From a bacterium BMS3Abin03 (GTDB lineage Bacteria > Bacteroidota > Ignavibacteria > Ignavibacteriales > Ignavibacteriaceae): a stretch of 64,000 nucleotides of DNA. The stretch lies in NCBI GenBank assembly GCA_002898075.1, contig BDSV01000161.1:8168-72167 (forward strand), written 5' to 3'. Below the pieces are notes generated by a model, which saw nothing but the letters and a program-made list of their open reading frames with translations, did no database searches and had not been told where the DNA came from. How positions within the stretch are numbered: the first letter of the stretch is position 1; every line of letters starts with the position of its first letter. Below are positions 1 through 35,629 of this stretch, in pieces. Made by a program: the position numbers and the translations under genes.

Positions 1-1
1 A

Positions 2-682
2 TTACAAATATATGATAGATGTATTGAAGATAGTAAAGTCGAATCGCAAAGATTAGAAAAAGAATTAGAACAGCTAAAAGAAAAAATTAAGCTTAGGTTT
101 GCTGAAAAGAGTAACCGGGTAGCAAAGTTAGTAGCCTCAAAAGTAAAAGAAATAGAAAGAGAGATTCATAATCTGGACCTGATGGAAAAATTCAATCATA
201 AATTTACATTCAATAATTCGATAACGTATTCGGTTATCATATCATTTATAGTATTTATGATTGGCGGATTAGCCGGTTATGCTAATAGCGGCGATGTGAA
301 TGCCTGGGATTTTAAGAGTGTGATGAGTATTGTTTTTAGTGAAGGATTAAAATGGGCTGCAGTAAGTATTTTTATCGGAACATTAATTTCATTTGTTCTA
401 TCAGCATCAACTTTCCTGGAAAAATCGAACAGGAAAACGCAATTAATGAAGGAAATTGGGAGCATAAAAAAAAGAAAAGAAACAGAAATTGAAAATCTAA
501 AAATTATAGCCGAAGAGCGTGAAAAAAATCTTGAAGAGAGATTTCATAGTAGAATTAAAGAATATAATCAAAGAGCCGAAGGTTTGAAGAGCCAAAAGTT
601 AACCGAGCAAAATACTCTAAGGGAATCGGCAATGGTTAAATATACAAAACTCGATGAACAATTGGCTGCATTAATAAATTAA
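2..682 (+). CDS. hypothetical coiled-coil / membrane protein, probably 5-prime truncated by the window edge
   Basis: The ORF track starts at the first ATG (182), but the same frame is open with no stop back to nt 2 (LQIYDRCIEDSKVESQRLEKELEQLKEK...). There is no Shine-Dalgarno before 182. Two hydrophobic segments (ITYSVIISFIVFMIGGLAGY, WAAVSIFIGTLISFVLSA) are followed by a charged coiled-coil tail. No family recognised. Confidence 0.5.
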   Translation, partial: LQIYDRCIEDSKVESQRLEKELEQLKEKIKLRFAEKSNRVAKLVASKVKEIEREIHNLDLMEKFNHKFTFNNSITYSVIISFIVFMIGGLAGYANSGDVNAWDFKSVMSIVFSEGLKWAAVSIFIGTLISFVLSASTFLEKSNRKTQLMKEIGSIKKRKETEIENLKIIAEEREKNLEERFHSRIKEYNQRAEGLKSQKLTEQNTLRESAMVKYTKLDEQLAALIN

Positions 683-951
683 CTACTCACCTAAATTGCT
701 GGCTACTATTAGCCATCTAAACAGAGAAAACCACTACAGCCACTTAAATTCTTAATATTTGCGATAATAACTGCTTGGTATGGTTATAGGGATTAAAAGA
801 TGCAGGTAAAATACAGCTATGCTCTATTTGTTGCCGAATAGCAATTAATCAAGGCATTATAAAATCTTTCGAACGATAAAATATTTTTAGCGAATAACAA
901 CTTTTCATAGCTGTTCAATTAATTCTTATAAATTAATGCATAAGAAGTAGC

Positions 952-3900
952 ATGGATACAAATTATCATGATCAATTACCGGATGAAGATAAATTAAATT
1001 TTCTTTTTGAAAGACTTATTGCAGCAAAAAAATATGATGAATGCGAGGTATTATGTAAAAATATTTTAGAAAAAAATTCAAATAGTTCAATTGCATTTAA
1101 AGCTCTTGGAAATATTAATTTCGAACAAAACAATATTCAACAAGCACTTCAGTTTTATGAAAAGTCAATCGAAGCCAATCAAAATAATGTTGAAAGTGTT
1201 GAAAAACTATTTCAATTATATTCAACTTTCTTGCAACAAGATAAGTTAAATAATTTATTGTGCAGGGTATATAGAACAACGAATTTAAATTTCGGATATT
1301 TTTTACCAGAACTGGAAACCGCTGCTGCAACTGAATTTAATAAAATTTATCAGGAATACTTTTTACGAATAATCTTTAAGGAAATTAAATCCATTTTTGT
1401 TGAATTAGTTTATTCTCCAATTTGGAGCGGCTCTCCAGGTACTATCACCGAGTGGAAAAACAGTAGTATTCGGTCACCAAGATTTGAATGGCTGTTAAGA
1501 AACTGCCAAAATGTTATTCCAGAATTTTATTCTTTTCTGAATGATAAATTACAGGAATTCGATTCTAGCATCCCGATGAAAGAAACCTTTCGCCTATTAA
1601 ACAAAGGTTTATTGGATGTAACAAAAAGATTAAATGGAAATTTTATTTCGTTGGGAAAGAAAAAAATGGAATCTGAATTATCATTCGAGATTTGGGAAAA
1701 TAATCTTAAAGGCAGAGACGAAGAGGAATTATTATTAAAGTTTAATGAATTTATTCAAACAGAAAATATATATTCCGTGTTACTGCACGGAAGTCTTGCA
1801 GATGGAAAAACTGAAAAGGGGTATAGCGACTTCGATGTGACGTTTATTCTCAACATACCTAAAGACCCTTCCAAAGACGAATTATTTTCAATAGCTGAAG
1901 CCGTAGTAAAATCCAACCACTTTTTGCTCGCTTATAATCCTTTTATGCATCATGGTCCGTTATTAAATTTTATAGATGAATTAAATTGGGCAACTGAGGC
2001 ATCATTTCCGTCTGTACTTGTAAGAAATGGCATATGGATGAAAAACAGTATTAAACATGTATCCTATATTGATGATGGTTTGGATTTTATTCTCTCTTTT
2101 TCACCGTTCGATAATTTCTTCGCGAATAATTTTCAACAGCCCGAAGATTTTCATAATCCTTTTGATTTGATTTGGTGGTCTTCTTCCGTAATGTTTTTGC
2201 CCTTATTGTTAACACAAATGTTGGATAAAAAATCAATTTGGAAAAGAGATTTATTAACAAAAAAGAATGATTTAATTCCTGCAAAGTATTGGGAACTGCT
2301 TGAAGAAATATCTTCTATACGCAAAAAGGTAGCGCAATTAATCCAGAAGAAAGTATCATTACCTTCAACTGTTTTAATATCGGATGAGAATCCCGGTATT
2401 ATATTGAATCGATTTAAAGAAAAATTCCCGCTTGATTTAGCTGAAATACAATCGGTGGGAATAACAAATAAATTAATTAACACTACAAAAGAGTTCTGGC
2501 TATTTTGTAAAAACGCTGTCTTCTATTATAATTTTATTAACCAGCATAGTTCTAACAGTAGCTTAAATATTTTTCTTAATAATTGGGCTAATGATATAAC
2601 AGAGATACCTGTACCTTCAACATTCGATATTTATCAAGAGACCAAGGAGTATTTCTTAAAACTCTGCGAAACTATTCCTCAGATCATTTCTGTATATGAA
2701 TTTGGAAACGTTGGCAGCCCCGGATTATCGGATCTGGATTTGCTTGTGATATTTGATGATGAATTATCCGGAATACCATCTCAATTAACGATCAATTCGA
2801 TGCAGCAAAAATATGCTGAGGTTTTCAATCATAATCCCATATTTATTTCGGAATCTTCGCTGCCGATGTTTGGTGCGATCTTTCCATTGTTTAATTGTAA
2901 AAGAATATTCGGCAAAGAACAAATAATTAAGCTAACAACAGAATTTGATACGCTTGTTCAGCTTTCACTATTCACTTTTATAAATGTATTAAAATATCCT
3001 AGAGATATAATTTATCTTTCAAAACAAAATAAACTACGTTGGAAAACTTTACTTACTTATCTGAACAGCTTTAATCATGTAGCAAAAGCATTTGAGTTAT
3101 TAAATATAACAGTACCTTTATCGATTCAGAAATGCTTGCAATTGAATGATTACATAAGGACTAATTTTCAGGAAAATAAAATGTCGATTGATGATCTGAA
3201 GGATGCACTTTTATTAATGCTTGAAGGCAGTACAGATATGATTTTGGTTTTTGATAAAATATGGGCAGAAGCAATTCCTGAACTTAAAGATATATATGGA
3301 ACTGTTGAAAAAAATAAATATTTTAAACAAGTATTAAATTCTTTAACATCAAAAACCACAACCTATCCAAAATTACCACCTATACTTAATGTAGTTATGC
3401 TTCACCTTCAAAAAATTGATGACAAAATAAATATTCCATCATCTGTTTTTGAGAAAATTGAAAAAGCTTTCTCTGAATATATTCGTTATAAAAATAATTT
3501 CATCCAAAATGAACTTGTTCACCGTCGAAATATAGATCATTATATTATTGGTAATGCATTTTCCACTTTGCCCGACCAAGCTGAACAAAAAGATTATTCC
3601 CTTGCAAACATCAAAGAATTAGAATCCCCTCAGTTTGAATGGTTCATGTTCAAATTAAATGCATTCGCTTATGAACACTCGCTTCGCATGATGATCAATT
3701 GGTCTAAAATATGGGAGTATCCCTGGATCTGGTTTAATGCATTACATAATATTGATTTTGATGGAAAGACTGCTGTCGATTTAGGGAGCGAACTTTCACC
3801 TATTCCCTGGCTGTTGGCAATGAAAGGTGCAAATGTTGTATTAATAGAAACTGATGAACAGTATATTTCAGACTGGCGGCGTCTTAATAAAGAATTAAAT

Positions 3901-6900
3901 CTGAATGTTGAATGGAGAATTGTTAGTGATGAAAAAATTCCTTTACCTAATAATTCTGCAGATATTCTAACAAGTTTCTCTGTTCTTGAACATCAGCCCG
4001 ATAAAAATGGAGCTGTTGAGGAAGTAATTAGAATTTTAAAACCAAATGGTGTTTTTGCTCTTTCATTTGATATTTGTGAAACTAATATGGGAATGACTTT
4101 CCCGGAATGGAATGGGAAAGCGATTGATTTACAGGACTTTGAAACTATATTATGGACGAATCCTGCATTTCAAAAGTCATTCAAACCAGAGTGGAATATA
4201 AATGATATTACAAGTTTCTGGCAGTGGCATTTACAGTCTGCTGAACATCATAACTATGTAACTGCTGCAGCAATATTTTATAATAAAAAGATCGAGTTAA
4301 AAAATGAAGAAGCTAAAAACATCGTTTGGGTTCGAATCGATTCTATTGGCGATAATATTCTTGCTTCTTCTATACTTCCGCACATCAAACAAAAATTTTC
4401 TAATTCGAAGACTACTGTCATCTGCCAGGAACACATCTCTGAGTTGTATGAATCATCACCGTATGTTGATAATATTATTCCACTTGACAAAAAGAAGTAC
4501 GAAGAAGATAATGATTACCGCAGAGAGTTCATTAACAAGCTTAATGAATTAGATCCCGATTATGTCCTTAATTCAGTTTTTTCGCGAGAAGAAATTGGAG
4601 ATGAAATTGTTGAAAATATTGATAGTAAAGTAAAAATTGGATTTTTTGGTGATACAAACAATATAAGTGAGGAGCAAAGGGAGACGAATAATAAATTCTA
4701 TACTCATCTTATTCCTAATGATAATTCCGATTATCCAATAGAATTGAACTTACACAAACAATTCTTAAATTACCTCAATATTGAAGTTGAAGCACTTAAG
4801 CCGGTAGTATGGATTACAGATGAAGACAGAGAATTTGCGAATCATCTAATGCAACAATATGATATTGAACAGAATAAATTCCTCGTACTATTTGCGGGAG
4901 CTCAAAGTTTTGCAAAAAGTTTTTATGATTTTGGTAAAGCTATTAAGTCTTTTGTAGAAGAAAATAGTCTTTCTGTAATAGCACTGGGTGATAATAAAGA
5001 TTTTAATGTAAATCAAATAAACCTTGATGAACTTAATGTTTCAACTGTTAATCTATCCGGTAAAACTACACTTAGGCAAGCAATCGCAATAGTAGAAAAA
5101 GCTTCAATGGCTGTAGGAGTGGATACTGGATTAGCTCATGTTTCTGCAGCCGTTGAAATACAAAACGTTATTCTGCTTGGCGGCGGTCACTTCGGCAGGT
5201 TTATGCCTTATTCTAATTTAACTTCTATAGTAGCCCTGCCGCTAAATTGTTACAGGTGCGATTGGAGATGTAAACATGGTTCCGCTTATTGCGTTAAAGA
5301 TGTTGATTACAAAGTAATTGAAGAAGCTGTCAATCAAACATTTAGTAAAAAGTCTGATAAGGCACGTGTTTTTATTCAGACAATTTTTCAACCTGAAACT
5401 GATAGAGAAAAACCCAAATGGGAATTTGATGATGACTTACTTTCAGATCAAAATATAGAAATAATAAAAGTTAAACCTGAAATCTCCTTGAAGGAAATTG
5501 AATTACTTATCCTTGGGAAAGAATATGAAAAAGCAATAAACCATTTACGAGGATTGTTAAATTTCAATCCTGATGATATTAATGTTCTAAATAATCTTGC
5601 AGTTGTTCAAATTTTAACAAAAAGATGGGAGAATGCCTCTCAAACATTAATAGCTGTTCTAAAAATTGATCCTGAAAATCAGGTTGCGATTGAAAATGTT
5701 CAATACCTGGAAAAGCAACTCGTATATCATAAAGCAATTCTTGATTCCGAAGAATTAATAAAACAACATAATTTTGAAGATGCGAAAAAGATACTTCGAG
5801 AAATATTAAATCATGAACCTAATCATATAGATGCTTTGAATAATCTTGCAGTTGTTGAAATTTCTAAAAACAATCTTGCCGAAGCAAATTTAGTACTTGA
5901 AAAAATACTTAACTTAGACCCCGAAAACAGTGTGGCATTGAATAATAAAAATGTATTATGGGAACTTATTGGGCAAGACACTTCCCCCGGTCAGGTAATA
6001 AAAATCGTCGATAGTAATTATCCGAAAATCTCCATAATCACCCCTTCATTCAATCAGGGCAAATACATCGAAAAAACAATCCAAAGTGTTTTTGAACAGA
6101 ACTATCCTAATTTGGAATATATTATAATCGATGGCGGCTCGACTGATAATACCGTTGAAATAATTAAAAAATATCAGGATAAAATTGATTATTGGGTAAG
6201 TGAAAAAGATGATGGACAAGCTGATGCAATAAACAAAGGAATTAAGAAAGCAACAGGTGAAATCATTGCTTGGCTTAACTCCGATGATTTCTATTATCCC
6301 GATGCGCTGCACGGCATTGCCGAAGCTTATCTAAAATATCCTGATGCCGGACTGTACACGGGAAACGGTTATAAGGTAGATCGTTCGGGAAATAATCCAA
6401 GGTTATATGCAAATAGTGTCGGATTCGATTACAATGCTCTGTTAAATGGTTCCTGTTTTATTTTACAACCTTCTACATTTATTAATAGAAAAGCTGTTGA
6501 TAAGCTCGGTTTGCTTGACGACTCACTCCGCTATGGTTTAGACCTTGAGTACTGGCTTAGAATAGGTAAGGAGTTTGATGTTATTGTTATTAATAAACCG
6601 CTCTCTGCTTACAGGTGGTACGATGAAATAAAAACAAACGAAGGATTTAAACGATGGATTGAACTGTGGCAGATTTACAAAAGATATACCGATGCGGAGA
6701 TTACTCCCGGTTTGCTGGTTGAATTTTTCTCTATTCTTAAAAAGGATTTTGTAAGGAAGGATTTAGAAATTGATGTTAAAGACTTAGCTGCGAAAGGTTT
6801 TGAATATACTTATCTTTTAATGCAGCAGGCACTTAACCTTAAAGATTGCATACCCGAAGGAAGGGGTATCATTTGCACTCCAACTTTGAAAGATAAAAGT

Positions 6901-9900
6901 AGTAATCATATTAAGCCCAAGCAAATCTCCGTTGTAAAAGATTTAAATACAAAACCTAAAATCGATGTTGTTCTTCAGGCAACGGGGGTGCATGCGTGGG
7001 GAGTAGGCAGAGGATGGGAAAATGGTGCTAATAAACTCGGGCTTCATCATAGAACATTTGCTCCGGGTGCAAGTTGGGGCGCAAAGGATGTTGATTGTGA
7101 TGATGGTTTGTACGATTACCTTCTCAAGCCCGAAGCGGATGTTATGATTCTTTTAGGTTTCGATTGGCATTCTCAGATGCTTCATTTGAATCCTAAATGG
7201 AAAGATAGATGGCTGAAGACAAGCATTTATAAAGTGCTTTATGTACAGGAATCTGTCGAAAATCATTGCAAGTTATTTAATACTCTAAATATGAAATCCT
7301 CCTTGATTTCGGCGGCAGAGATTGCTGACTTTATCGTTTATACCGATTTGAACGATACGGAATTTATTAAAAGTTTGGGTAAACCATACTTGTTGCAGCC
7401 ATTTGGTGTGGATGATACGGTTTTCAATATAAAAAAGGATTTAACTTCAAGGAAAAACAGGGCATTCTTCAGAGGTAAAATTGTACCGTTTAATAATGAC
7501 AACGCTTATGCAGAAAGACGGACGTTGCTAAAATACCTGCTGGATAATGATCTTATTGACTTAATTGAATATAGTAATCAACCGGTAACTGCCGGGGAAA
7601 TTGCCCGTGACTTTAATCAATATACAACTGCTGTAAACCTTCCATCCGTCTTTGCCAATCATCCCACGCGTGTTTATGAAGCATTAGCTTGCGGATGTGC
7701 GCTGATAACTAACAAGACAAACATTCCGAAAGTTGATAGTTTATTTGAGGATGGAGTTCATCTTATCTATTATTCTGATAAAACATCACTACAAAAATCG
7801 ATTGGGTTACTTCAAGGAGATAAGAAGTTACTTAATGACCTTTCAAAAAACGGATATGAGTATGTGCTTGATAATTTTACTTTGGATAAGCACTTAAATG
7901 AAATTATAAGTTATTCGAAAAATAGAATATCATTATCTGAACAAGAGACGAAAATTGACATTCCGGCTAAAAGGGATAAAACAAAAATTCTAATCGACGG
8001 TGTAATCTTTCAACTGCAAAAGAACCGCCCGCATGGGATCTATCGCGTCTGGGAGGCATTACTACGAGAATTTTCAAAGACTGATTTAGCAGATCGGATT
8101 CTTCTTTTAGATCGCGAATTATCTGCTCCGGACATTCCTAATATTCAAACAAAAGTAATTCATAGCTATACTTATGCTCAATGCAATGCAGATTCTCATT
8201 ACTTGCAGGATATTTGTGATGAAGAAAAGGCATCACTCTTTATTTCTACATACTATACTTATCCTGATAGAACGCATAACGTGTTGCTGTTACATGATAT
8301 GATTCCGGAAGCAATGGGCTGGGATTTAAGCAATGAGCATTGGAGTACCAAAATAAAAGCTTTACTTAAAGCTAATGCCTATTTCTCAGTTTCAAATTCA
8401 ACAAAAAATGATTTCATCAAATATTATCCAAAACTTTCTAATAAGAAAATATTTGTTGTTAACAATGCAGCAGATCATCATTTTAGAAAAAATAGCTTAC
8501 CTGAAATAGAAAACTTCAAGATAAAAAAGGGATTAAAAAAACCGTACTTTATTGTTAGCGGTAACAGGGATAAGTATAAAAATGCTATTCTGTTCTTTAA
8601 AGCATTTTCTAAATTGCGTAATAAAAAATCTTTCCAGGTACTAATTACCGGTGGTTCAGAAAATATCGAAGAAGAATTTCTGCCCTACTTAAAAGGAATA
8701 AATTATCAGTTAGTTCGATTAGATGATAAAGAATTATCTCTCGCTTATAACGGTGCTGTTGCCTTAGTTTATCCGTCAAAACATGAAGGGTTTGGTTTAC
8801 CGATTTTAGAAGCAATGCAATCAGGTTGCCCTGTTATAACTTGTAAAAATTCTTCGATTTCTGAAGTTGCAAATAATGCCGCGATTTATGTGAATGAAAA
8901 TGACGTTAACGAAATGAAGCAGGTATTAATTAAAGTTCAGAAGCAGGATGTAAGAAATAGCTTTATTAACAAAGGATTGAAAAATGCACTTAGATTTTCC
9001 TGGAAGAAAAGCGCAGCCGAATATAAGAAATATTTATACCGGCTTCTCCGGGAATTTAAGAATAAAAAATTAAATCCTTCAACTCCGCTTGATGAGTATA
9101 ATAAACTTTATTACCTGATTATGAAAGATGAAAGACTCGGTGTTGCTCATTCAAAACTGATTGATTTGCTTATTGACGGTATAAAAGCAGACCCTGCTGA
9201 ATTTTATAAGATCGAAAAAGAGTTGGTTAGGTTAGAGCAGTTTGATTTCTATCATCTGCTTAAATCTTTAAATAAAAAGAATAAAAAAGATCCGTTCTAT
9301 TGCTATGTAGAAGGATTAATTTATCAAAAAAATAATGATTACCATAATGCATTAGCACTTTATATGGATTCGCTAAATGCGGGGTGGACACACTGGAGAA
9401 TTGGTTACCTTGCTGCATTGGCTGCTATCGATGACAATAATCTTGATGTTGCTAAACAACTACTTGAGACAGTAATAAAAGCTAAACCGGATTACCGGGA
9501 TGCGGTGGATAAATTGCAGTTTGTAGTAGATATAATGAGCGGTAAGATTAAACCGAATAAAATAAAAGTATCGGCAATTGTATCAACGTATAATTCTGAA
9601 AAATTTATTCGTGGCTGTCTCGATGATTTAATTAATCAAACTCTCTACAAAAAAGGTGAATTGGAAATCATTGTTGTGAATTCCGGTTCAAATGAAAATG
9701 AATCACGAATCGTTCAAGAGTATCAAACGAAATTTTCAAATTTAGAATTGATCTCGACGGATGAAAGAGAAACGGTTTATAAAGCATGGAACAGGGGAAT
9801 AAAGGCAGCAACCGGAAAATATATTACAAATGCAAATACCGACGACCGTCACAGACATGATGCTTTAGAAATACTCACTCTCGAACTGGATAAAAATAAT

Positions 9901-12759: not shown

Positions 12760-12785
12760 AAACCGGTAATAAATAATTTAATAAT

Positions 12786-15700
12786 ATGGATGAATATTCG
12801 AAAGCAATAGAATACTTTAACAATAAGGAATTTCTACCGGCTGAGGAAATTCTTATAAATTTATTAGAGCAGAATGATAATGATTATGATGTTGCAAATT
12901 TCCTCGGGATAATTCAGCTATATCTTTGTAATTATAAAAAAGCAATAAGTTATTTTAACCGGGTTGTTTTTATTTATGATAAACATGCAAATGCGTTTTA
13001 TAACCTCGGTATTTGTTATGAGAAAACCGGTAATAACAATCTGGCAATATCGAATTATGAAAAAGCAATTGAATACAATCAGAATCTGGTAGATGCCTAT
13101 TTAAATTTAGGACGGTTACTAACTACTAAAGGTGAATTTGCTGAAGCGGAAAAACTTTATAAAACTGCAATAAAAAACAATTCGAAGTATCCACAATTAT
13201 ATAATAATCTTGCAAACCTGTATTTCAAATTAAATAAATGGCAGGATGCCATAAGAAATTATAAATCTGCGATAAAGCTTAATACTAATAACGGTAACTA
13301 TTATTTCAATCTCGGTAGTTGTTATGCTAAGAATGAAGAGTATAATCTTGCGATTGAAAATTATGAAAAAACAATTCAATTAAAACAGGATCATATCGGG
13401 GCGATGAATAATTTAGCTATAATTCAAACAAAACTTAATTGTAATAAAAAAGCTATTGAATTATATCATAAAATAATCTCAATCGATGAAGATAACGCAC
13501 AAGCATACTTTAACCTGGCAAATACTTACCACGAAGAAAAAAATTACGATGAAGCACTAAGATATTACGAACATGCAATTAAACTCGACCCTAACCTAAA
13601 AAGCGTATTTGTTAATATCGGCAGAATATTTCTACAAAAAGGAGATACTCAAACTGCCGAAGAGTTTTTTCTTAAAGCCATCGATGATGAAGAGAACAGG
13701 GTAATTGCTTTTACAAATTTAGGTGTAGGCAGTCTTGAGAATTTGAAAATTGATGAAGCGATTTCCTTCTTTGATATTGCAATAAAAAGCAAATCTGATT
13801 TAATCGAAGCACACTATAATAAAGCACATGCTCTATTGTTAAAGGGTAAATATTCTGAGGGCTGGCAGGAATACGAGTGGAGAAAGAAACGGAAAGATTT
13901 TATTAAACCGAATCTATCCAAGCCGGAATTAAAGGATCAGAATATTAAAAATAAACGAATATTGGTTTATGCAGAACAGGGTTTAGGCGATACGATACAT
14001 TTTGTTCGCTATCTCAAATTACTTAAAGAAAAAAATTGCTACCTGATATTTGAGTGTGATGAAAAATTAGCCGGTCTCTTTGAAAACATTAATTGGATCG
14101 ATGAATTAATAATTTGTCAAAATTCAGATGAACCGGAAATTGAGTACGATTATCAGATAGCATTGCTGAGTTTACCTTTCTATTTTAATACAGAGTTTAA
14201 AACTATTCCTTCATTTGAGAAATACCTGGTTCCCGATACGAAATTTGAGGATAAGTGGAAACTAATTATTGGTAAAAATGAAAATTTAAAAGTCGGAATA
14301 GTGTGGGCGGGAAATCCCAATAACAATAGAGATAAAATTCGTTCTATTCCTCTGCTGAATTTTCTTCCGCTATTTGCAATAAAGGGTGTTGATTTTTATA
14401 GTTTGCAAGTTGGTCCCGCAGCCGATCAGTTATCCGATATTTATTATCCGATTGTTCGGCTTGATAAACACATAAAGAATTTTTCCGATACGGCTGCAAT
14501 AATAAATCGTCTTGATTTGATTATAACTGTAGATACATCTGTTGCGCATTTAGCAGGTGCATTGGGTAAACCGGTTTGGAATTTATTAATGTATCTGCCC
14601 GATTGGCGATGGTTATTGAACCGTAAAGAAACACCATGGTATCCATCTATGAGACTTTACAGGCAGCAGAAGAAAGGTGATTGGAATAGTGTTTTAAATG
14701 AAATCAATTATGATTTACAAAGTTTAGTGAATGTAAATATAGGTGTTGGTACTAACAGTAAAATTAAGTCGATGCGGAATGAAAAAACTATAACTGATAA
14801 TAAAAATGAACTTCCACTTTATCTCGGACTGAGCAATGGAGAAAACTTCGGATGGGGGATTTGCAGTAAATATCTGAGAAAAGAATTAACCGGGAAGGTT
14901 AAAACTGTTAACCTCGGTGAAGCAGATATCACTTCACAAGCGAAGAGTTTACCCGGTTATTTATTCAATGCAATCACTAATAACAGCTTAAAAGGATTAT
15001 ATAATTTAAAAGGAATTAGATCCTATGGCTATACTTTTTTTGAAAACGAATTAACACATTCAGCTGCCGAAAACGCAAAGCAATTTGATGTAATCCTTGC
15101 CGGTTCATCGTGGTGCTGCCAAAAATTGAAAGAAGGTAAGATTAAAAATACAGATGTGCTGATTCAGGGAATCGATCCGAATTTATTTTTCCCGGGAGGA
15201 GAAAAAGAAGATAATAATTTGTTCGTGATTTTTTCCGGCGGAAAATTCGAATTAAGAAAGGGACAGGATTTAGTTATTAAAGCATTCAAAATATTACAAC
15301 AAAAATATTCTGATATGATTCTGATAAACGCATGGTATAATCTCTGGTCGGATGTTATTGCTTCGATGCAATATTCCAAATACATAAACTTCAAAATGGA
15401 AGGTAATAACTGGCAGGATAAGATGGAATCCCTTTTCCAGGCAAATGAAATCGATTCCTCAAAAATATTTTCTCTTCCGCTCGTACCGAATGGAAAAATG
15501 CGTGAATTATATCTAAAATCAGATGTCGGGCTTTTCCCCAACAGATGTGAAGGTGGAACGAATCTCGTTATGATGGAATACATGGCTTGCGGTAAAGCCG
15601 TAATTGCTTCTTATAACAGCGGGCATAAAGATATCTTAAATGAAAGCAACTCGTTACAGTTAAAAACAATGAATGATTTCCGGTTATTTGATGATGAAAA

Positions 15701-15875
15701 AAATTTGATTGCAGACTGGAGTGAACCGGAACTCGATGAAATAATTGAACATATCGAATACGCCTATAATAATAGAGAAGAAATAGAAAAAATCGGAAAG
15801 ACAGCAGGAGAACATCTTAAAAGGTTTACCTGGTCTGACACAGCGGATAATTTATTAAAGATTATTTATAAATGA
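12786..15875 (+). CDS. TPR-repeat protein fused to a GT9-like domain and a C-terminal GT1/GT4-like glycosyltransferase domain (1,029 aa)
   Basis: About 350 aa of canonical TPRs (A..YYNLG.CY...G....AI..YEKAI repeated) at 12786-13850. GT9-like motifs ILVYAEQGLGDTIHFVRY (~13960-14015) and ITVDTSVAHLAGALGKPVW (~14529-14580). C-terminal GT-B motif EGGTNLVMMEYMACGKAVIAS (~15549-15610). Starts 26 nt after the giant ORF. Confidence 0.85.
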   Translation: MDEYSKAIEYFNNKEFLPAEEILINLLEQNDNDYDVANFLGIIQLYLCNYKKAISYFNRVVFIYDKHANAFYNLGICYEKTGNNNLAISNYEKAIEYNQNLVDAYLNLGRLLTTKGEFAEAEKLYKTAIKNNSKYPQLYNNLANLYFKLNKWQDAIRNYKSAIKLNTNNGNYYFNLGSCYAKNEEYNLAIENYEKTIQLKQDHIGAMNNLAIIQTKLNCNKKAIELYHKIISIDEDNAQAYFNLANTYHEEKNYDEALRYYEHAIKLDPNLKSVFVNIGRIFLQKGDTQTAEEFFLKAIDDEENRVIAFTNLGVGSLENLKIDEAISFFDIAIKSKSDLIEAHYNKAHALLLKGKYSEGWQEYEWRKKRKDFIKPNLSKPELKDQNIKNKRILVYAEQGLGDTIHFVRYLKLLKEKNCYLIFECDEKLAGLFENINWIDELIICQNSDEPEIEYDYQIALLSLPFYFNTEFKTIPSFEKYLVPDTKFEDKWKLIIGKNENLKVGIVWAGNPNNNRDKIRSIPLLNFLPLFAIKGVDFYSLQVGPAADQLSDIYYPIVRLDKHIKNFSDTAAIINRLDLIITVDTSVAHLAGALGKPVWNLLMYLPDWRWLLNRKETPWYPSMRLYRQQKKGDWNSVLNEINYDLQSLVNVNIGVGTNSKIKSMRNEKTITDNKNELPLYLGLSNGENFGWGICSKYLRKELTGKVKTVNLGEADITSQAKSLPGYLFNAITNNSLKGLYNLKGIRSYGYTFFENELTHSAAENAKQFDVILAGSSWCCQKLKEGKIKNTDVLIQGIDPNLFFPGGEKEDNNLFVIFSGGKFELRKGQDLVIKAFKILQQKYSDMILINAWYNLWSDVIASMQYSKYINFKMEGNNWQDKMESLFQANEIDSSKIFSLPLVPNGKMRELYLKSDVGLFPNRCEGGTNLVMMEYMACGKAVIASYNSGHKDILNESNSLQLKTMNDFRLFDDEKNLIADWSEPELDEIIEHIEYAYNNREEIEKIGKTAGEHLKRFTWSDTADNLLKIIYK

Positions 15876-15893
15876 GTTTACCAAAATCTCATT

Positions 15894-17426
15894 ATGGAGA
15901 AAGTTAATATGATAACATTAAGTATGATAGTTAAAAATGAAGAGGAACATCTTAAAGATTGTTTGCTCTCGGTAAAAGACGTCGTAGATGAAATTGTATT
16001 AGTGGATACCGGCTCGACTGACAATACAATTGAGATAGCTAAAAAATTCGGTGCGAAAGTATATAACTTTAATTGGATCGATGATTTTTCCGCGGCAAGA
16101 AATTTTGCACTGGACCATTCATCCGGTGATTGGATTTTATACCTGGATGCCGATGAAAGACTATCAGATTCGTCGAAGAATGAATTAAAAAATTTAACAA
16201 GAAGAAAAAATGAATGTGCATATTTTTGTAAAGTAAAAAGCATTAACGATTTTAACCGCAGATCTTCAGTAATGGATTATGTGCGGTTATTTCCCAACGA
16301 GAAGAATATTAGGTTTGAGGGAAAAATTCACGAACAAATTGAAAACGCATTAAGAAATGAAAATTATTCAATTAAAAAATCGAATATTGAAATCTTACAT
16401 CTCGGTTATAATCTTTCTGATGAAAATTTAAAAGAAAAAGCGAAAAGAAATCTACAGTTGTTAAGTAAAGAATTCGAAAATAACCCATCATCCTATTATG
16501 CTTTTCAGCTTGGGCAATCGTATGGTATATTAAATGATAAGATAAATGCGGAAAAATATTTTCGCATCTCGTTAAATGATACAACCCTTAAAAACGAATA
16601 CAAATCATTGGCATATAGATATCTGTCTGTAAATTCAGTGGAAAAGGGTGAGTGGGATTCAGCACTTAGTTATATCGAAAAAAGTTTATCGGCTGACGAG
16701 GCGCAGCCAATAGCTTTAATGGTTGCTGCAAAAATATATTTGCATTTCGGCAAAGGCGGGGATGCTAAATATTATTGTAAAAAAGCTTACCTGATTAATG
16801 AAGATTATCTATCGGGTAACCGGTCTTCACATCAGACTATTTTATTAGATGAGCAGATAATTATTGATGAAAGCATAAACATTGCAGCTAAATTATCGGA
16901 TAAAGAATTATTTAAGTTCTTTTATGAAAAAATTGAGCCGGATGTTGATAAAGTAGAAGAAACCGAAAACCATGTTAGGGCTATTATATTTAATAAGTTA
17001 TTCGAGGATACAGAAATCACAAAAAGTGAAATAGAAAAATTTGAAAAATATTTAATGAGCGAGAGCGATGTTAACACAATAGTTGACTTGTTGGAAAATT
17101 ATTCATACGTAGAAGCAAAATTATTAATTTTAGACTCGATATATAAGATTTTTCCGCAAAATACACTTGTTCTTAATAAATTTGCATTAGCGTTAGAAGA
17201 AGACAATAATTTTACAAAAGCGGAAGAATTATTAGAAAAATCACTTGCTTTAAATAGTGAAGACCCTGCCGTAATTTTTTATCTAATTTCAATTTATTTA
17301 AAAAGTGAGCAATTCAATAAAATACCAAACTTAATTCGTATAGCCGAAGAAAATTTTATGAATGAGCCGGTTGTTTTACAGAGGATTGAAATATTAAAGG
17401 ACAAATTAAGGCAATTTATTAAATAA
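15894..17426 (+). CDS. family-2 glycosyltransferase with C-terminal TPR-like helical repeats (510 aa)
   Basis: N-terminal GT-A motifs: ITLSMIVKNEEEHLKDCL, VLVDTGSTDNT, WIDDFSAARN, LYLDADE (DxD ~16147-16158). The C-terminal half is helical-repeat/TPR-like. Starts 18 nt after the previous gene and ends 120 nt before flagellin. Confidence 0.85.
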   Translation: MEKVNMITLSMIVKNEEEHLKDCLLSVKDVVDEIVLVDTGSTDNTIEIAKKFGAKVYNFNWIDDFSAARNFALDHSSGDWILYLDADERLSDSSKNELKNLTRRKNECAYFCKVKSINDFNRRSSVMDYVRLFPNEKNIRFEGKIHEQIENALRNENYSIKKSNIEILHLGYNLSDENLKEKAKRNLQLLSKEFENNPSSYYAFQLGQSYGILNDKINAEKYFRISLNDTTLKNEYKSLAYRYLSVNSVEKGEWDSALSYIEKSLSADEAQPIALMVAAKIYLHFGKGGDAKYYCKKAYLINEDYLSGNRSSHQTILLDEQIIIDESINIAAKLSDKELFKFFYEKIEPDVDKVEETENHVRAIIFNKLFEDTEITKSEIEKFEKYLMSESDVNTIVDLLENYSYVEAKLLILDSIYKIFPQNTLVLNKFALALEEDNNFTKAEELLEKSLALNSEDPAVIFYLISIYLKSEQFNKIPNLIRIAEENFMNEPVVLQRIEILKDKLRQFIK

Positions 17427-17441
17427 ATTACAAGAATCTTC

Positions 17442-17469
17442 TAAACTTTTAGTTACCTCCATCCGATAA
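17442..17469 (+). promoter_or_regulatory. sigma-28 (FliA/SigD)-type promoter of the flagellin gene
   Basis: TAAACTTT (17442-17449), a 12-nt spacer, then TCCGATAA (17462-17469). The consensus is TAAAGTTT-N11-GCCGATAA, so there is one mismatch in each box and a spacer one nt longer. It lies 77 nt upstream of the flagellin ATG. Confidence 0.7.
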
Positions 17470-17499
17470 TCTACTTGAGAGAATTATCTTAATTAACAG

Positions 17500-17539
17500 C
17501 GGGTAAGGATACCCGTCACTCATTAACTATACAAGGAGG
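17500..17539 (+). promoter_or_regulatory. flagellin 5-prime leader with two candidate CsrA sites (GGA-loop hairpin and GGA in the Shine-Dalgarno)
   Basis: Perfect 6-bp stem CGGGTA/TACCCG with loop AGGA at 17500-17515. Shine-Dalgarno AAGGAGG at 17533-17539, 6 nt before the ATG at 17546. csrA and fliW are present in the same window. Confidence 0.55.
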
Positions 17540-17545
17540 TATAGA

Positions 17546-18355
17546 ATGCCTTTCAAAATCAACACAAACCTAAGCGCATTGGACGCTTATAATGCCTTAG
17601 CCAGGGTAAATGCTCAAACAAATAAAGCACAGTTACGGCTGGCTTCACAATTGAGAATCAACTCTGTTGCCGATGACACATCGGGTTACAGGGTTGGTAA
17701 AGAGCTCGAAGGTAAAGTAACTCTTATGAAAGCTGCCCAGGGTAATATCGGTGCAGCAAAAAATACTCTTTCCACTGCTGAATCAGCACTAACTAACATA
17801 AATGATTTGCTGATACAGATTAAGGGTAAAATAGCCGAAGCAAATGATCCTACTAAAAACCTGACCGCTCTGGCTAATGATATAAATGCACTGGGTGATG
17901 AAATCAGTGCAATATTTACTAACACCAAGTTTAATGATACTGCACTACTTAGTGGATCGGCACTTCCGTCAAGCAGTAATTTTGTATTCCAGACCGGGGA
18001 AACTGAAAAGACAACCATCAACTTCGGTACAATGAATACACTTGATCTTGCATCTATTTCAAGCAGCGGTGCTACATCATCCAATATTACTTCCCTTAGT
18101 GTTTCTACCCTCGAAACAGCAGTGCAAGATTCATTAGGAAAGATTGGTAACTATGTACAAAGACTTGATGTAAAAGATGATTATCTAACCAGCGCCATAA
18201 CGAACGCTACAGCAAGTGTGAGCAGGCTATTTGACGCTGATATGGCAATTGAGCAGTTAAAAGCTACCAAGGGTCAGATTGGTCAACAAGTCTCCACAAC
18301 AATGTTAGCTCAGCTCAACTTTCAACCACGATCACTTCTCACCTTATTCCAGTAA
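17546..18355 (+). CDS. fliC: flagellin, short form (269 aa)
   Basis: N-terminus MPFKINTNLSALDAYNAL...RINSVADDTSGY and C-terminal D0/D1 helices (...RLFDADMAIEQLKATKGQIGQQVSTTMLAQLN) are typical flagellin_N/C. The central part is only about 55 aa and is Ser/Thr-rich. Confidence 0.95.
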   Translation: MPFKINTNLSALDAYNALARVNAQTNKAQLRLASQLRINSVADDTSGYRVGKELEGKVTLMKAAQGNIGAAKNTLSTAESALTNINDLLIQIKGKIAEANDPTKNLTALANDINALGDEISAIFTNTKFNDTALLSGSALPSSSNFVFQTGETEKTTINFGTMNTLDLASISSSGATSSNITSLSVSTLETAVQDSLGKIGNYVQRLDVKDDYLTSAITNATASVSRLFDADMAIEQLKATKGQIGQQVSTTMLAQLNFQPRSLLTLFQ

Positions 18356-18374
18356 AAGTTGGGCTTATAGTAAA

Positions 18375-18411
18375 CCTCTTCCGGAATAGTTACTCCGGGA
18401 GAGGATTTTTT
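18375..18411 (+). terminator. rho-independent terminator after flagellin
   Basis: 11-bp stem CCTCTTCCGGA / TCCGGGAGAGG (one G-U pair), 8-nt loop, then A-TTTTTT (18406-18411). Confidence 0.75.
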
Positions 18412-18424
18412 AACATAAAATAAA

Positions 18425-18769
18425 ATGATTATGCAAAATTATACAACATTAAACAACAGACGTCCTAACATGAATCCGTATCTTGTAAAAGATATTTTAG
18501 AAGCTACCCAGCAGCAGCTTGTAATTAAATTGTATGATTTAGCTATCGTAAGTTGTAAAAAACATGAACTGAGAAAAACTAATAATGCAATTCAGGCGCT
18601 GATTGACGCTCTTAATTTTGAGGAAGAAAATGCTTCTCAAATCGCTACGGGTCTTTTTAAGCTTTATAAATATTGTCAGGATCAGATGAGGAACTCAAAT
18701 TACCCTATCGTAGTTAGGATTTTATCTGAACTCAGGGAAAGCTGGGTATCTGTATTTAATAATAACTAG
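18425..18769 (+). CDS. fliS: flagellin-specific chaperone FliS
   Basis: 114 aa. Motifs ...ATQQQLVIKLYDLAI...AIQALIDALNFE....IATGLFKLYKYC resemble the FliS four-helix-bundle family. Position is next to fliC/fliD. Confidence 0.8.
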   Translation: MIMQNYTTLNNRRPNMNPYLVKDILEATQQQLVIKLYDLAIVSCKKHELRKTNNAIQALIDALNFEEENASQIATGLFKLYKYCQDQMRNSNYPIVVRILSELRESWVSVFNNN

Positions 18770-18777
18770 GTAAAACG

Positions 18778-20564: not shown

Positions 20565-20897
20565 ATGGAAAATTTAGTTAACGAAATAAATAAGATTGAA
20601 TTATTGCTCAAAAGTGCTTATTCAGATTTAGATGATATTTCCAAAGAATCGTTTAATGAAAAAATGCCCCGGATAAGAGGCAAACTAAGTTTAATTGTTT
20701 CAAAAAGGAACGAACTTTTAATAAAATATAAGAGGGAAAAATTACTGAAGTACGACGAAAGCTTGTTTACCTTGTCTAAACAAATCCAAAAAAAGTTCGA
20801 TAATATAATTGAGTATTATAGTGCGGAAAAACTTGAAATTGCTCAAAAAATATTGCAGATTGAAAATAGAAAAAAATTGGCTTATTATTTAAGGTGA
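20565..20897 (+). CDS. hypothetical helical protein, possible FliT/FlgN-like export chaperone
   Basis: 110 aa, all-helical and charged. Tightly coupled, starting 2 nt after fliD. The call rests on position only. Confidence 0.35.
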   Translation: MENLVNEINKIELLLKSAYSDLDDISKESFNEKMPRIRGKLSLIVSKRNELLIKYKREKLLKYDESLFTLSKQIQKKFDNIIEYYSAEKLEIAQKILQIENRKKLAYYLR

Positions 20898-28135: not shown

Positions 28136-28151
28136 CGGCATTGATTTTGCG
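28136..28151 (+). promoter_or_regulatory. candidate sigma-54 promoter upstream of the flgB operon
   Basis: CGGCAT-TGATT-TTGCG has the invariant GG (28137-28138) and GC (28149-28150) separated by exactly 10 nt, against the consensus TGGCAC-N5-TTGCW. It lies 78 nt upstream of the ATG at 28229. An NtrC-type activator is encoded nearby. Confidence 0.4.
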
Positions 28152-35036: not shown

Positions 35037-35629
35037 AAACAAAACTCATATATATTATGTCTTTTGTCGGCGCTTTTATTTTAATAACAGCCGTAATCGT
35101 TTATGTTAATTCACAGTACAATAATATTTTTAAGTTTGATTTTTCACCCCCGACGGAAATTTCGCCGCCAGCCAATACTTTGTCCACACCCGATCAGAAC
35201 CAGCCAATTAAAAATGATACATTGTCTTTCCCTTTGACAAAAAACCCCGAAAAAAAGATTCTTAATATTATGGATGATAGTAAACTCCCTGAAAATCCTA
35301 CAGATAATAAAATGTTGAAGGATAGTTTAAATATTTTAAAATCGGAAATCGAGAAACTAAAAAAGGATAAGGCGAATTCTAATAATCAACCGGTAAAAAA
35401 CACAAATAAGCCGGACACAAAAACTGATGAAAACAACTACAAAATATGGTTGAAAAAAACATCGGCTCTCTATGCATCGATGGATTCTAAAAAGGCAGCT
35501 AAAATAATTCAGAATTATTCCGATAATATAGCGAGAGACATTCTTTACTCAATGAATAAGAAAAAAGCAGCGGAAATATTAGCCGAATTGAATCCTGAAA
35601 CAGCAACAAGAATAATGAGTATTAACTGA
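35033..35629 (+). CDS. membrane-anchored protein with MgtE_N-like C-terminal domain (B. subtilis YlxF / MotE-like)
   Basis: N-terminal TM helix and a low-complexity linker. The C-terminus KKAAKIIQNYSDNIARDILYSMNKKKAAEILAELNPETATRIM resembles the MgtE intracellular N domain found in flagellar operons. Confidence 0.5.
   Translation: MKTKLIYIMSFVGAFILITAVIVYVNSQYNNIFKFDFSPPTEISPPANTLSTPDQNQPIKNDTLSFPLTKNPEKKILNIMDDSKLPENPTDNKMLKDSLNILKSEIEKLKKDKANSNNQPVKNTNKPDTKTDENNYKIWLKKTSALYASMDSKKAAKIIQNYSDNIARDILYSMNKKKAAEILAELNPETATRIMSIN

Follow-up and report, generated by a model that had tools for sequence, protein, structure and literature searches.

What is the function of the three genes, each coding for a fusion of TPRs with glycosyltransferase (GT) domains, that lie directly in front of the flagellin gene of an uncultured marine member of Ignavibacteriota? 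The original prediction was that they form a novel flagellin glycosylation system. We analyzed the island in the context of a 64,000-nucleotide stretch of DNA (the window) and of 80 related loci from Ignavibacteriota genomes, one per genome. In our view, this is likely an island for cytoplasmic O-glycosylation of flagellin, in which the product of the third gene, ORF3, would attach the first sugar and the other enzymes would lengthen the chain.

Organization of the island

The flagellin gene is preceded by three ORFs on the same (+) strand, whose coordinates are exactly those originally predicted: positions 952..12759 code for a giant 3935-aa protein, 12786..15875 for ORF2 (1029 aa) and 15894..17426 for ORF3 (510 aa; gene callers start it at ATG 15909 and report 505 aa). 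The ORFs are separated by 26 and 18 nt, as had been proposed, and the distance between the last of them and flagellin is 119 rather than 120 nt. The flagellin gene (17546..18355, + strand) codes for a 269-aa protein of the short type with Flagellin_N and Flagellin_C domains. It is followed by genes of its downstream partners FliS (18425-18769) and FliD (18778-20562), both on the same strand, and then by a full flagellar regulon; the flagellin-FliS-FliD order is kept in related loci.

Pfam scans revealed TPRs joined to GT domains in all three island proteins. Since nine firm GT domains and a weak one were counted (seven in the giant, one in ORF2, which also houses the weak GT9-like match, and one in ORF3), the earlier estimate of about ten was fair. 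No hydrophobic or membrane segment was predicted in any of the three. An open frame as long as that of the giant (3935 aa) cannot be accounted for by chance in 33% G+C DNA. Gene calls in two independent assemblies (ERZ1742237 and DRR093005) gave the identical length of 3935 residues, which rules out an assembly artefact.

A partial ORF (2..682, + strand) that runs off the 5′ end of the window codes for the C-terminal 226 aa of a conserved protein of ~620-645 aa. Its product matched no Pfam family and is 32% identical (E=6e-34) to a 621-aa protein that heads the island in a related locus, L089; the homologues from L089 and another locus, L091, are 30% identical over 560 aa. This protein at the island head contains two hydrophobic segments and a coiled coil.

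Neither Maf (PF01973) nor nonulosonic-acid synthesis families were present among Pfam hits of all genes called at 7.5-64 kb of the window. Positions 1-7.5 kb are occupied by the giant gene and the partial upstream ORF only, and the three island proteins had no Pfam match to PF01973 either. The predicted lack of Maf and nonulosonic-acid genes thus holds within the window, as judged by Pfam hits of called genes. There are no sugar-nucleotide genes in the window either.

ORF3 and its linkage to flagellin

ORF3 consists of a GT2 domain (aa 7-200) followed by C-terminal TPRs (TPR_19, TPR_2 and TPR_16; aa 250-465). Its best match among solved structures is GmaR (22ao, E=2.5e-37), with aa 7-197 of ORF3 aligned to residues 11-202 of GmaR and thus to the entire catalytic domain of the latter, and a family profile built from 25 orthologues matched GmaR with an E-value of 1.2e-50. 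The motifs for binding of metal and nucleotide sugar, DxD and those flanking it (DTGSTD, NDFSAARN and DADE), are invariant in the 25 orthologues; the corresponding D38-T-G-S-x-D43, F65-x-A-A-R-N70 and D85-A-D-E88 of ORF3 align with GmaR residues. GmaR of Listeria monocytogenes is a flagellin beta-O-GlcNAc transferase and an anti-repressor of MogR in which, as in ORF3, an N-terminal GT2 is followed by TPRs, and it was proposed to recognize flagellin through the latter (PMC9638930). ORF3 resembles GmaR also in being soluble and in that its predicted substrate is a short flagellin. The two proteins differ in length (510 and 637 aa) and host (Ignavibacteriota and Bacillota), and while GmaR adds one GlcNAc, the present island encodes 8-9 further GT domains beside ORF3. 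By its sequence, ORF3 is a candidate priming flagellin O-glycosyltransferase.

Sixty-nine of the 80 loci could be evaluated for flagellin. An ORF3 orthologue was located 0-500 nt upstream of flagellin(-FliS-FliD) in 46 of these, and in 11 more flagellin was found within 10 kb downstream, bringing the total to 57/69. A cultured relative, Stygiobacter electus 09-Me (locus L075), has this gene pair as well. In nine loci no flagellin was present in the fetched flank, which was shorter than 10 kb for several of them. The GT content upstream of ORF3 orthologues is heavily rearranged, while the ORF3-flagellin adjacency persists. The GT genes of one Melioribacteraceae clade stand apart from flagellin and are followed by unrelated genes (T9SS cargo, GH9 and DNA methylase). 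Linkage of orthologous islands to flagellar genes, by which the original prediction was to be judged, is therefore mostly upheld: it is seen within 10 kb in the 57 loci and is missing from this clade. Sugar-nucleotide genes, which are typical of flagellin glycosylation islands, are present in islands of some relatives and include epimerase and RmlD-like genes.

The expectation that the central segment of flagellin is rich in Ser and Thr was borne out: these residues make up 41% of aa 135-190 (nt 17948-18115) versus 14-18% of the flanks, and the mean for 67 orthologues is 32% versus 17%. The acceptor of the glycan is presumed to be this segment. Short flagellins commonly have a centre rich in Ser/Thr, glycosylated or not.

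A sigma-28 (FliA)-type promoter motif of flagellin, TAAACTTT-N12-TCCGATAA, is located at positions 17442..17469 (+ strand). Such a motif is present 45-135 nt upstream of the flagellin gene in 54 out of 70 orthologous loci, and a FliA-like sigma factor is encoded at 50191-50829. The flagellin 5′UTR can fold into two hairpins that present GGA motifs (17500..17544, + strand; fold z-score -3.15), the second of which includes the Shine-Dalgarno sequence; similar hairpins were found in orthologous loci. The 5′UTR is a probable CsrA target, and genes for FliW and CsrA are located at about 63 kb of the window. A search ahead of the island for a sigma-28 or sigma-54 promoter, which would point to co-regulation with flagellar genes, retrieved none.

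The giant protein and ORF2

The order of domains in the giant, all encoded on the + strand, is TPR, two nucleotidyltransferase (NTase)-like modules, methyltransferase, GT9, TPR, GT2, two GT-B, three GT2 and TPR. The N-terminal TPR block (aa 21-83, 1012..1200; Pfam TPR_1 and TPR_19) and the NTase-like modules are followed by a SAM-dependent methyltransferase domain (aa 937-1040, 3760..4071; PF08241, E=3.2e-13), which gives substance to an earlier guess that the glycan may be methylated. The GT9 domain (heptosyltransferase-like, GT-B fold; aa ~1120-1500, 4309..5451) matched PF01075 (E=8.8e-17), TIGR02195 (E=6.4e-18, under the cutoff of that model) and PDB entry 1psw (E=9e-5). The internal TPR block (aa ~1520-1660, 5509..5931; TPR_19, TPR_2 and related families) precedes GT2 domain a (aa 1694-1850, 6031..6501; PF00535, E=3.4e-34), which carries an “NSDD” DxD-type motif. 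Next come a GT-B domain of the Glyco_trans_1_2 family (aa 2208-2319, 7573..7908; PF13524, E=2.6e-13) and a GT4-type GT-B domain (aa 2521-2675, 8512..8976; PF00534, E=1e-20). They are followed by GT2 domains b (aa 2874-3021, 9571..10014; PF00535, E=3.4e-32), c (aa 3133-3286, 10348..10809; PF00535) and d (aa 3390-3602, 11119..11757; PF00535 and PF13641). The latter is of the polysaccharide type, its top PDB match being chondroitin synthase (E=1.6e-18), with GmaR matched at just 4.8e-5. The C-terminal TPR block (aa ~3670-3910, 11959..12681) contains TPR_16, TPR_19 and TPR_2.

The GT2 domains are only 20-42% identical to each other, which makes it probable that each has its own specificity. Counterparts (defined by an identity of 33% or more across 60% or more of the length, in flanks of up to 10 kb on each side) of domains b, c and d were found in 23, 21 and 51 of the 80 related loci, respectively. 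The best family matches of the island GT2 and GT4 domains other than ORF3 are WcaA, EpsD, TuaG and PglI/J-type, all under family cutoffs; these domains look like glycan-elongating enzymes, and the GT2 domains among them match the polysaccharide type rather than GmaR.

In ORF2, an N-terminal TPR array (aa ~20-380) resembling the TPRs of OGT is combined with a GT-B/GT4-like domain at the C-terminus (aa 807-1024), where Glycos_transf_1 matched aa 807-954 with an E-value of 5.8e-13. The additional GT9-like match is weak (E=7.7e-5, aa ~565-597), and the C-terminal 629 aa had no sequence match in the PDB. Orthologues of ORF2 are encoded, either before or after the ORF3 orthologue, in 26/80 loci within flanks of up to 10 kb on each side. 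ORF2 can be likened, by layout alone, to FlmG of Caulobacter crescentus, a 596-aa protein in which an N-terminal TPR array likewise precedes a C-terminal GT-B domain. [quoted passage not shown] In contrast to the present window, the FlmG system relies on a nonulosonic-acid pathway, since FlmG transfers pseudaminic acid.

Neither the NTase-like modules at the N-terminus of the giant nor the PF08241 domain had been noticed originally. The two tandem modules, putatively of the Pol-beta type (aa 84-940, 857 aa; 1201..3771), were picked out by Pfam (NTP_transf_2, E=3.6e-7, 30.9 bits versus a cutoff of 21), motifs and fold. Each is followed by a helical domain, and the motifs are located near aa 280-295 and 585-596. 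The Pol-beta signature hG[GS]-x(9-13)-D-x-[DE] occurs twice in the region and is invariant, and the GS...GxSDxD and GxxGxPGLSDxD motifs do not vary among 28 homologues. A Foldseek search of the PDB with the AlphaFold model of the region (pLDDT 88.5) retrieved AAD(9), AadA, LinB and MNT as best matches, with probabilities of up to 0.99 (0.9-0.99 for AAD(9), AadA and LinB) yet E-values of 0.03-0.3. The matches to AAD(9), AadA and LinB are remote (TM-score of 0.35-0.46 on target, 10-18% identity), and the family profile matched ANT(4')-IIb and AAD(9) with E-values of 0.024 and 0.12. Aminoglycoside and lincosamide nucleotidyltransferases adenylylate hydroxyl groups on sugar-like substrates. The modules of the giant carry the Pol-beta GS...DxD signature of AadA, AAD(9), LinB and ANT(4') and, as predicted from the model, may have the same fold of an NTase plus a helical domain. 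Unlike in these remotely similar enzymes, there are two such modules in a row, joined to glycosyltransferases in one chain. The conserved TPR-NTase-NTase-methyltransferase-GT9-TPR block also exists alone, as 1588-aa protein P0128 of the protein library. The tandem-module family has about 1,000 cluster representatives at E<=0.001.

The following mechanism, each enzymatic step of which we infer from gene content, homologies and synteny, can be proposed. Flagellin transcribed from its own sigma-28 promoter would be bound ahead of export by soluble ORF3, which would place the first sugar, by analogy with GmaR a HexNAc from a UDP-sugar, on Ser/Thr of the central segment (aa ~135-190). The primer would be extended by ORF2 and by the giant, whose three TPR blocks would tether its GT9, four GT2 and two GT-B domains, to yield an oligosaccharide that could reach about 8-10 residues. 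The PF08241 domain would methylate a sugar, and a decoration, nucleotidyl or phospho-linked, may come from the two aminoglycoside-nucleotidyltransferase-like modules. Modified flagellin would then leave through the flagellar type III apparatus. Gain, loss, fusion and splitting of modules among relatives would diversify the glycan between species. We hold to be rather unlikely a bolder version, in which the giant is a single-polypeptide glycan assembly line that docks on flagellin via its TPRs and makes a long, species-specific glycan with a new decoration. In this version the NTase modules would install, for instance, a sugar that is adenylylated, nucleotidylated in another way or linked by a phosphodiester, and the block that also exists as P0128 would be the functional unit for it.

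Flagellin versus other targets

We favor flagellin as the target because ORF3 is GmaR-like, its linkage to flagellin is conserved (with exceptions such as the clade mentioned above) and the island proteins are free of hydrophobic segments. The TPRs of FlmG, the Ser/Thr-rich acceptor segment and the type B system of Clostridioides difficile, considered below, argue in the same direction. We found no literature report of a glycosylated Ignavibacteriota flagellin; the published glycoproteins of Ignavibacteria are not flagellins, but cargo proteins of type IX secretion (T9SS).

It is unlikely that the island instead makes a glycan of the cell envelope (LPS core or O-antigen, exopolysaccharide or an oligosaccharide for general O-glycosylation of the Bacteroidota type) and is found next to flagellar genes due to inherited synteny, without a functional link. 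Most of its GT domains are LPS/EPS-like, which counts against the flagellin reading: GT9 is the family of LPS heptosyltransferases, and the GT2/GT4 domains are closest, below family cutoffs, to WcaA, EpsD, TuaG and PglI/J-type enzymes. The island of one relative contains a gene with a WavE (LPS) domain, glycans on T9SS cargo proteins of Ignavibacteria contain heptose and methyl-deoxyhexose, and the GT genes of one clade are separated from flagellin. However, judging by Pfam hits of called genes, the window lacks an initiating phosphoglycosyltransferase as well as any flippase, polymerase, ligase or ABC exporter, and no such transport or initiation genes are present in the inspected flanks of L089 and L091. 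In addition, ORF3 is specifically similar to GmaR and SunS, i.e., to protein- or peptide-directed enzymes, TPR fusions typify protein-directed transferases, and the ORF3-flagellin adjacency outlasts the upstream reshuffling.

Quite improbable is a different target among flagellar or secreted proteins (the FliD cap, the hook, or a sheath- or filament-associated protein), or a mainly regulatory role of ORF3 akin to that of anti-repressor GmaR. FliS and FliD are equally conserved neighbors, and adjacency cannot separate them from flagellin; yet known enzymes of the GmaR and FlmG types act on flagellin, and it is flagellin that has the exposed Ser/Thr-rich segment. As for regulation, GmaR is indeed bifunctional (PMC9638930), but the only GmaR chain matched by ORF3 is the 204-residue GT-domain entry 22ao. 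Solved GmaR 141-637 (TPR, linker and anti-repressor) was matched by neither ORF3 nor its family profile at E<=0.001, and GmaR has 127 aa more than ORF3 (PMC9638930). Finally, it is highly improbable that ORF3 acts like SunS, as an S/O-glycosyltransferase of a peptide that is secreted as a small glycopeptide (glycocin), with the other enzymes being unrelated, for although SunS (1e-26) and ThuS are its second and third PDB matches and the NCBIfam SunS-family model recognizes it (E=1.3e-31), GmaR is a clearly better match, the score of 110 bits is far under the SunS-family cutoff of 350, no gene for a precursor peptide, thiol-disulfide oxidoreductase or ABC exporter is located nearby, and the synteny is with flagellin.

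Flagellin glycosylation has been worked out chiefly in Proteobacteria, Campylobacterota and Bacillota and involves mostly nonulosonic acids. The system predicted here was overstated as novel, since the GmaR architecture (GT2+TPR beside flagellin) and the multi-GT, methylating type B system of C. difficile are known (PMC13317340, PMC5207246), and in Clostridium, GT2+TPR beside flagellin is already used to predict non-Maf flagellin transferases (PMC13317340). The PF00535 transferases of C. difficile type B, GT1, GT2 and GT3 (CDR20291_0241-0243), are encoded beside flagellin and assemble an O-linked oligosaccharide step by step, starting from a GlcNAc primer: GT1 adds GlcNAc, and GT2, which bears PF08241, adds and methylates rhamnoses (PMC5207246). 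The island studied here has five PF00535 domains and one PF08241 domain next to the flagellin gene; common to both systems are multiple PF00535 domains, a single transferase-fused PF08241 domain and the absence (here, from the window) of Maf and nonulosonic-acid genes. Whereas the C. difficile system consists of three separate modest-sized enzymes and dedicated sugar and peptide biosynthesis genes, the present island encodes 9-10 GT domains, of which the 3935-aa giant alone carries 7, together with TPR blocks, GT9/GT4 domains and two NTase-like modules, and has no sugar-nucleotide genes in the window. Flagellar islands of Clostridium, too, contain GT2+TPR in the flagellar locus and are hypervariable in content, including deoxysugar pathways (PMC13317340). 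However, their GT2+TPR transferases are predictions in Bacillota, often found alongside Maf and Pse genes, while islands of Ignavibacteriota are dominated by very large fusion proteins.

Most likely, then, the island is a large variant of known flagellin glycosylation and opens no new category of biology. The locus and the 80 related loci show that the under-studied phylum Ignavibacteriota keeps a gene of a GmaR-type transferase beside the flagellin gene and surrounds it with rapidly reshuffled, very large multi-transferase proteins. If our reading of the island is true, priming of the GmaR type would reach beyond Gram-positive bacteria, and the uncharacterised family of tandem NTase modules would be assigned its first context. 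The related islands, with their multi-GT enzymes fused in some cases and split in others, would also provide a natural series that bears on how the length and order of a glycan are encoded without a lipid carrier.

Genes and domains of the island

Three forward-strand ORFs, which encode a giant protein of 3935 aa (952-12759), ORF2 of 1029 aa (12786-15875) and ORF3 of 510 aa (15894-17426), precede a forward-strand gene for a 269-aa flagellin (17546-18355), with successive intergenic gaps of 26, 18 and 119 nt. Since the 3935-residue product is called identically, as is the 1029-residue one, in two independent metagenome assemblies, ERZ1742237 NODE_36 (112.7 kb; 8 mismatches to the window over 20.8 kb) and DRR093005, the giant ORF is real. 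In both assemblies, ORF3 has 505 residues, starting from the ATG at 15909. The G+C content is even (31-37%) over the island and the flagellar genes and thus gives no pointer to a recent foreign origin of the island. No phase-variable homopolymer tracts were found at positions 1-18400, and an Rfam search of the window returned no match.

The giant was scanned with Pfam both whole and as overlapping 500-aa pieces. It contains TPRs (aa 21-83), a region with no strong family (aa 84-940), a PF08241 methyltransferase (aa 937-1040), a GT9 domain (aa 1267-1436), further TPRs (aa 1520-1660), a GT2 domain (aa 1694-1850), a GT-B domain of the Glyco_trans_1_2 family (aa 2208-2319), a GT4-type Glycos_transf_1 domain (aa 2521-2675), three more GT2 domains (aa 2874-3021, 3133-3286 and 3390-3602, the last termed GT2d) and terminal TPRs (aa 3670-3910). 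In ORF2, an OGT-like TPR array (aa ~20-380) precedes a GT4-like domain (aa 807-1024), and there is also a weak GT9-like match; in ORF3, a GT2 domain (aa 7-200) is followed by TPRs. No hydrophobic segments are present in the three proteins. As can be seen, the ORF and Pfam analyses bear out the original prediction of three same-strand genes combining TPRs with glycosyltransferase domains in front of flagellin, and its estimate of about 10 catalytic domains agrees with the nine firm domains and one weak domain counted over the three proteins. The GT2 domains keep DxD-type motifs and share 20-42% pairwise identity, and are therefore diverged modules and not recent repeats; a recent internal duplication was ruled out at such identities.

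Within aa 84-940 of the giant, a match to Pol-beta nucleotidyltransferases was detected (NTP_transf_2, E=3.6e-7). An exhaustive profile search with the N-terminal region of the giant retrieved 1076 cluster representatives at E<=0.001, 44 of them at E<=1e-30. Since two signatures, GS...GxSDxD and GxxGxPGLSDxD, are both invariant in an alignment of 28 of these representatives, the region appears to house two tandem nucleotidyltransferase-like (NTase) modules. A free-standing 1588-aa protein, P0128, corresponds to this part of the giant, with the order TPR-NTase-NTase-methyltransferase-GT9-TPR. An AlphaFold model of the region built from the 28-sequence alignment (pLDDT 88.5) was used in place of one built from 3 sequences only, which was unusable (pLDDT 44.6). 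The best PDB matches of the model were AAD(9), AadA, LinB, ANT(3'')(9) and MNT antitoxins, at probabilities of at most 0.99 and E values of only 0.03-0.3, and sequence profiles marginally matched module 1 to ANT(4')-IIb and module 2 to AAD(9). The fold assignment is suggestive of two modules like aminoglycoside nucleotidyltransferases. Such a pair in the N-terminal region of the giant is an unexpected element of the locus.

ORF3 and its linkage to flagellin

When ORF3 was compared with all PDB sequences, the catalytic domain of GmaR, the Listeria flagellin O-GlcNAc transferase, was retrieved first (E=2.5e-37), followed by the peptide glycosyltransferases SunS and ThuS. With a profile of 25 ORF3 orthologues, the GmaR match rose to E=1.2e-50, and the DTGSTD, NDFSAARN and DADE motifs were aligned. 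Judged by sequence, ORF3 is a member of the GmaR/SunS GT2 family. GlcNAc transfer onto Listeria flagellin resides in the N-terminal ~180 residues of GmaR (PMC9638930). ORF3 cannot be classed as GmaR proper, since it does not match the solved part of GmaR, residues 141-637, where the anti-repressor domain lies. The best PDB matches of GT2d were chondroitin synthase and similar glycan-elongating enzymes, with GmaR only at 4.8e-5, and the GT9 domain of the giant weakly matched LPS heptosyltransferase II. With best matches thus divided between GmaR and glycan-elongating enzymes, ORF3 looks like the sole protein-directed enzyme of the island, with the others resembling enzymes of chain extension.

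More than 3600 homologues of ORF3 were found; the named full-length ones at 40-64% identity come almost all from Ignavibacteria/Ignavibacteriaceae, the single exception being labelled Methanosarcina. One genome per species was scanned, which gave 80 loci from Ignavibacteriaceae, Melioribacteraceae, Stygiobacter electus and related groups. The position of flagellin, determined by tblastn with the proteins of the window, could be assigned at the 69 loci whose downstream sequence was long enough. At 46 of the 69, flagellin starts 0-500 nt downstream of the ORF3 orthologue on the same strand and is followed by FliS and FliD; it lies elsewhere within 10 kb downstream at 11 and within 10 kb upstream at 3, and is not in range at 9. 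Cultured relatives with this gene pair are Stygiobacter electus 09-Me (L075), where 170 nt separate the ORF3 orthologue from the flagellin downstream of it, Ignavibacterium album and Melioribacter roseus. The linkage of orthologous islands to flagellar genes, whose absence the original prediction had named as a refutation, is thus mostly borne out.

The genes upstream of ORF3 are far less stable. Same-strand ORFs of 1000 to >3300 aa almost always precede the ORF3 orthologue, with variable content; the context 5' of the window is drawn from relatives only. In the closest relative (L009), the last ~1070 aa of the giant form a separate gene, in L013 there is a colinear fusion of at least 2423 aa, in L014 the middle modules are absent, and in L071 ORF2 and ORF3 are swapped. 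In an Ignavibacterium sp., the NTase region is a protein of its own (1140 aa); next come a GT9+GT-B+GT2 protein of 1192 aa, then the ORF3 orthologue and then flagellin, with housekeeping genes beyond. A GT2d-like domain was present at 51/80 loci, ORF2-like sequence at 26/80 and other modules at fewer, as counted within the fetched flanks of up to 10 kb on each side, which limit the count. A ~510-aa ORF upstream of ORF3 orthologues was not always a GT2d+TPR module, an idea dropped since in L015 it combines TPRs with another domain. Some islands of relatives include genes for sugar nucleotides, namely UDP-GlcNAc 2-epimerase, NAD-dependent epimerase/dehydratase and RmlD-like reductases, or additional glycosyltransferase, methyltransferase and WavE genes (L040, 1955-5304; L059, 3145-3972; L075, 2183-3040; L024, 15432-18428); the island of the window has none of these. 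A stable ORF3-flagellin pair among hypervariable transferase genes matches what has been described for flagellin glycosylation islands.

Separately, the ORF at positions 2-682 is cut by the 5' end of the window. It covers the C terminus of a conserved protein of ~620-645 aa, which has two hydrophobic segments, long coiled coils and no Pfam family and is also encoded ahead of the island in two further genomes (L089, 8005-9870; L091, 7901-9835).

Flagellar surroundings and regulation

Downstream of flagellin lie FliS and FliD, then two small ORFs, a histidine kinase paired with a sigma-54 activator, and two receiver proteins. Beyond these comes essentially the entire flagellar regulon up to FlgK/L, MotAB, FliW and CsrA, all on one strand. 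The small ORFs (20565-20897 and the next, 85-aa ORF) are conserved, also come after FliD in relatives (111 and 82 aa in L089, for example) and have no Pfam family; they could be FliT- or FlaG-like. Two response-regulator genes (25279-27694), which carry an HDOD and an HD-GYP-type (HD_5) output domain respectively, follow the sigma-54 two-component pair within the flagellar cluster.

Flagellin has its own sigma-28-type promoter (17442-17469), and the same motif precedes 54/70 orthologous flagellin genes. No convincing flagellar-type promoter was found ahead of the island (upstream of 952), which gives no support to a co-regulation of the island with flagellar genes. Four TAAA-N14-16-CCGATA matches (1.09 expected) were found, at 35500-35525, 38046-38071, 52978-53001 and, within ORF2, 14465-14490. 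Those in the flagellar cluster may act as internal sigma-28 promoters. The match in ORF2 is not conserved in relatives, where hits are sporadic (7/80 loci) and at unrelated positions, and it was rejected as due to chance. Sigma-54-like -24/-12 elements, each with two mismatches, are found immediately upstream of the flgB-side operon (28136-28150) and fliL (40622-40636), with no overall enrichment of such matches in the window.

The 5'UTR of flagellin (17500-17544) contains two hairpins, each presenting GGA: the first is CGGGUAAGGAUACCCG, and the second holds an AAGGAGG Shine-Dalgarno sequence. The fold has a z-score of -3.15, and similar hairpins occur upstream of orthologous flagellins. Since FliW and CsrA genes are present at ~63.1-63.7 kb, flagellin looks likely to be under FliW-CsrA translational control, as predicted from these hairpins. 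Among seven start sites inspected, a strong Shine-Dalgarno sequence precedes only that of flagellin (17526-17545); the starts of the island genes, FliS and FliD lack one (932-951, 12766-12785, 15874-15908, 18405-18424 and 18758-18777). Such a lack is usual for relatives of Bacteroidota.

Predicted glycosylation of flagellin

The flagellin is of the short type, and its residues 135-190 contain 41% Ser+Thr compared with 14-18% in the flanks; in 67 orthologous flagellins (262-328 aa), the mean is 32% for the central segment and 17% for the flanks. Such a segment is compatible with O-glycosylation, though not diagnostic of it.

We consider it probable that flagellin is glycosylated in the cytoplasm. 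ORF3 would dock onto newly made flagellin and prime Ser/Thr residues, ORF2 and the giant, kept close by their TPR blocks, would lengthen and methylate the chain, the NTase modules would perhaps add further decoration, and modified flagellin would leave through the flagellar export apparatus. The homologies, the order of the domains, the lack of membrane segments, the synteny and, within the window, the absence of lipid-carrier machinery are shown by the analysis; the catalytic steps, the sugars, the length of the chain and the part played by the TPRs are what we infer here. As a prediction, this functional reading has good support from comparative evidence.

An envelope or general O-glycosylation glycan as the product of the island appears unlikely. 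At some of the nine loci without flagellin in range, the island continues into additional transferase, methyltransferase and WavE genes (as in L024). In a Melioribacteraceae clade (L055, L061, L064, L069), GT2d-like, ORF3-like and ORF2-like genes are not near flagellar genes but upstream of T9SS cargo proteins, a GH9 cellulase, a DNA methylase or an EamA transporter, and may form a paralogous island that acts on another target. In the window itself, lipid-carrier machinery is absent: no flippase, polymerase, ABC-exporter or initiating phosphoglycosyltransferase families were found. That the island acts on a different flagellar substrate, or that ORF3 is mainly a regulator, is less likely still; the flagellar setting and the kinship with GmaR would suit it, but the Ser/Thr-rich segment of the flagellin and the missing match of ORF3 to the anti-repressor part of GmaR speak against it. 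A glycocin system is very improbable, since the SunS-type role that family membership might suggest for ORF3 was ruled out by score and context.

Known systems resemble the island in several respects. In C. difficile type B, GT1 adds GlcNAc and GT2, which bears PF08241, adds and methylates rhamnoses (PMC5207246), an overall logic that the island matches; type A provides a precedent for post-glycosylation modification via nucleotide-activated donors (bioRxiv 10.64898/2026.02.12.704994). ORF2 shares its layout with FlmG, the Caulobacter flagellin transferase (PMC7591256). GT2+TPR proteins in flagellar loci are in use already to predict non-Maf flagellin transferases (PMC13317340), and, as first proposed, no Maf or nonulosonic-acid genes are among the families of the window's genes. 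We found no literature report of flagellin glycosylation in Ignavibacteriota. The Ignavibacteria glycoproteins reported from anammox enrichments are T9SS cargo proteins and therefore belong to a separate system; published glycoproteomics was accordingly set aside as evidence of flagellin glycans. Given GmaR-type GT2 enzymes, C. difficile type B and the GT2+TPR predictors, the island is thus not the novel kind of system for which the original prediction took it. What would be new here is an unusually large and modular version of known flagellin glycosylation, in a phylum for which no such system had been described.
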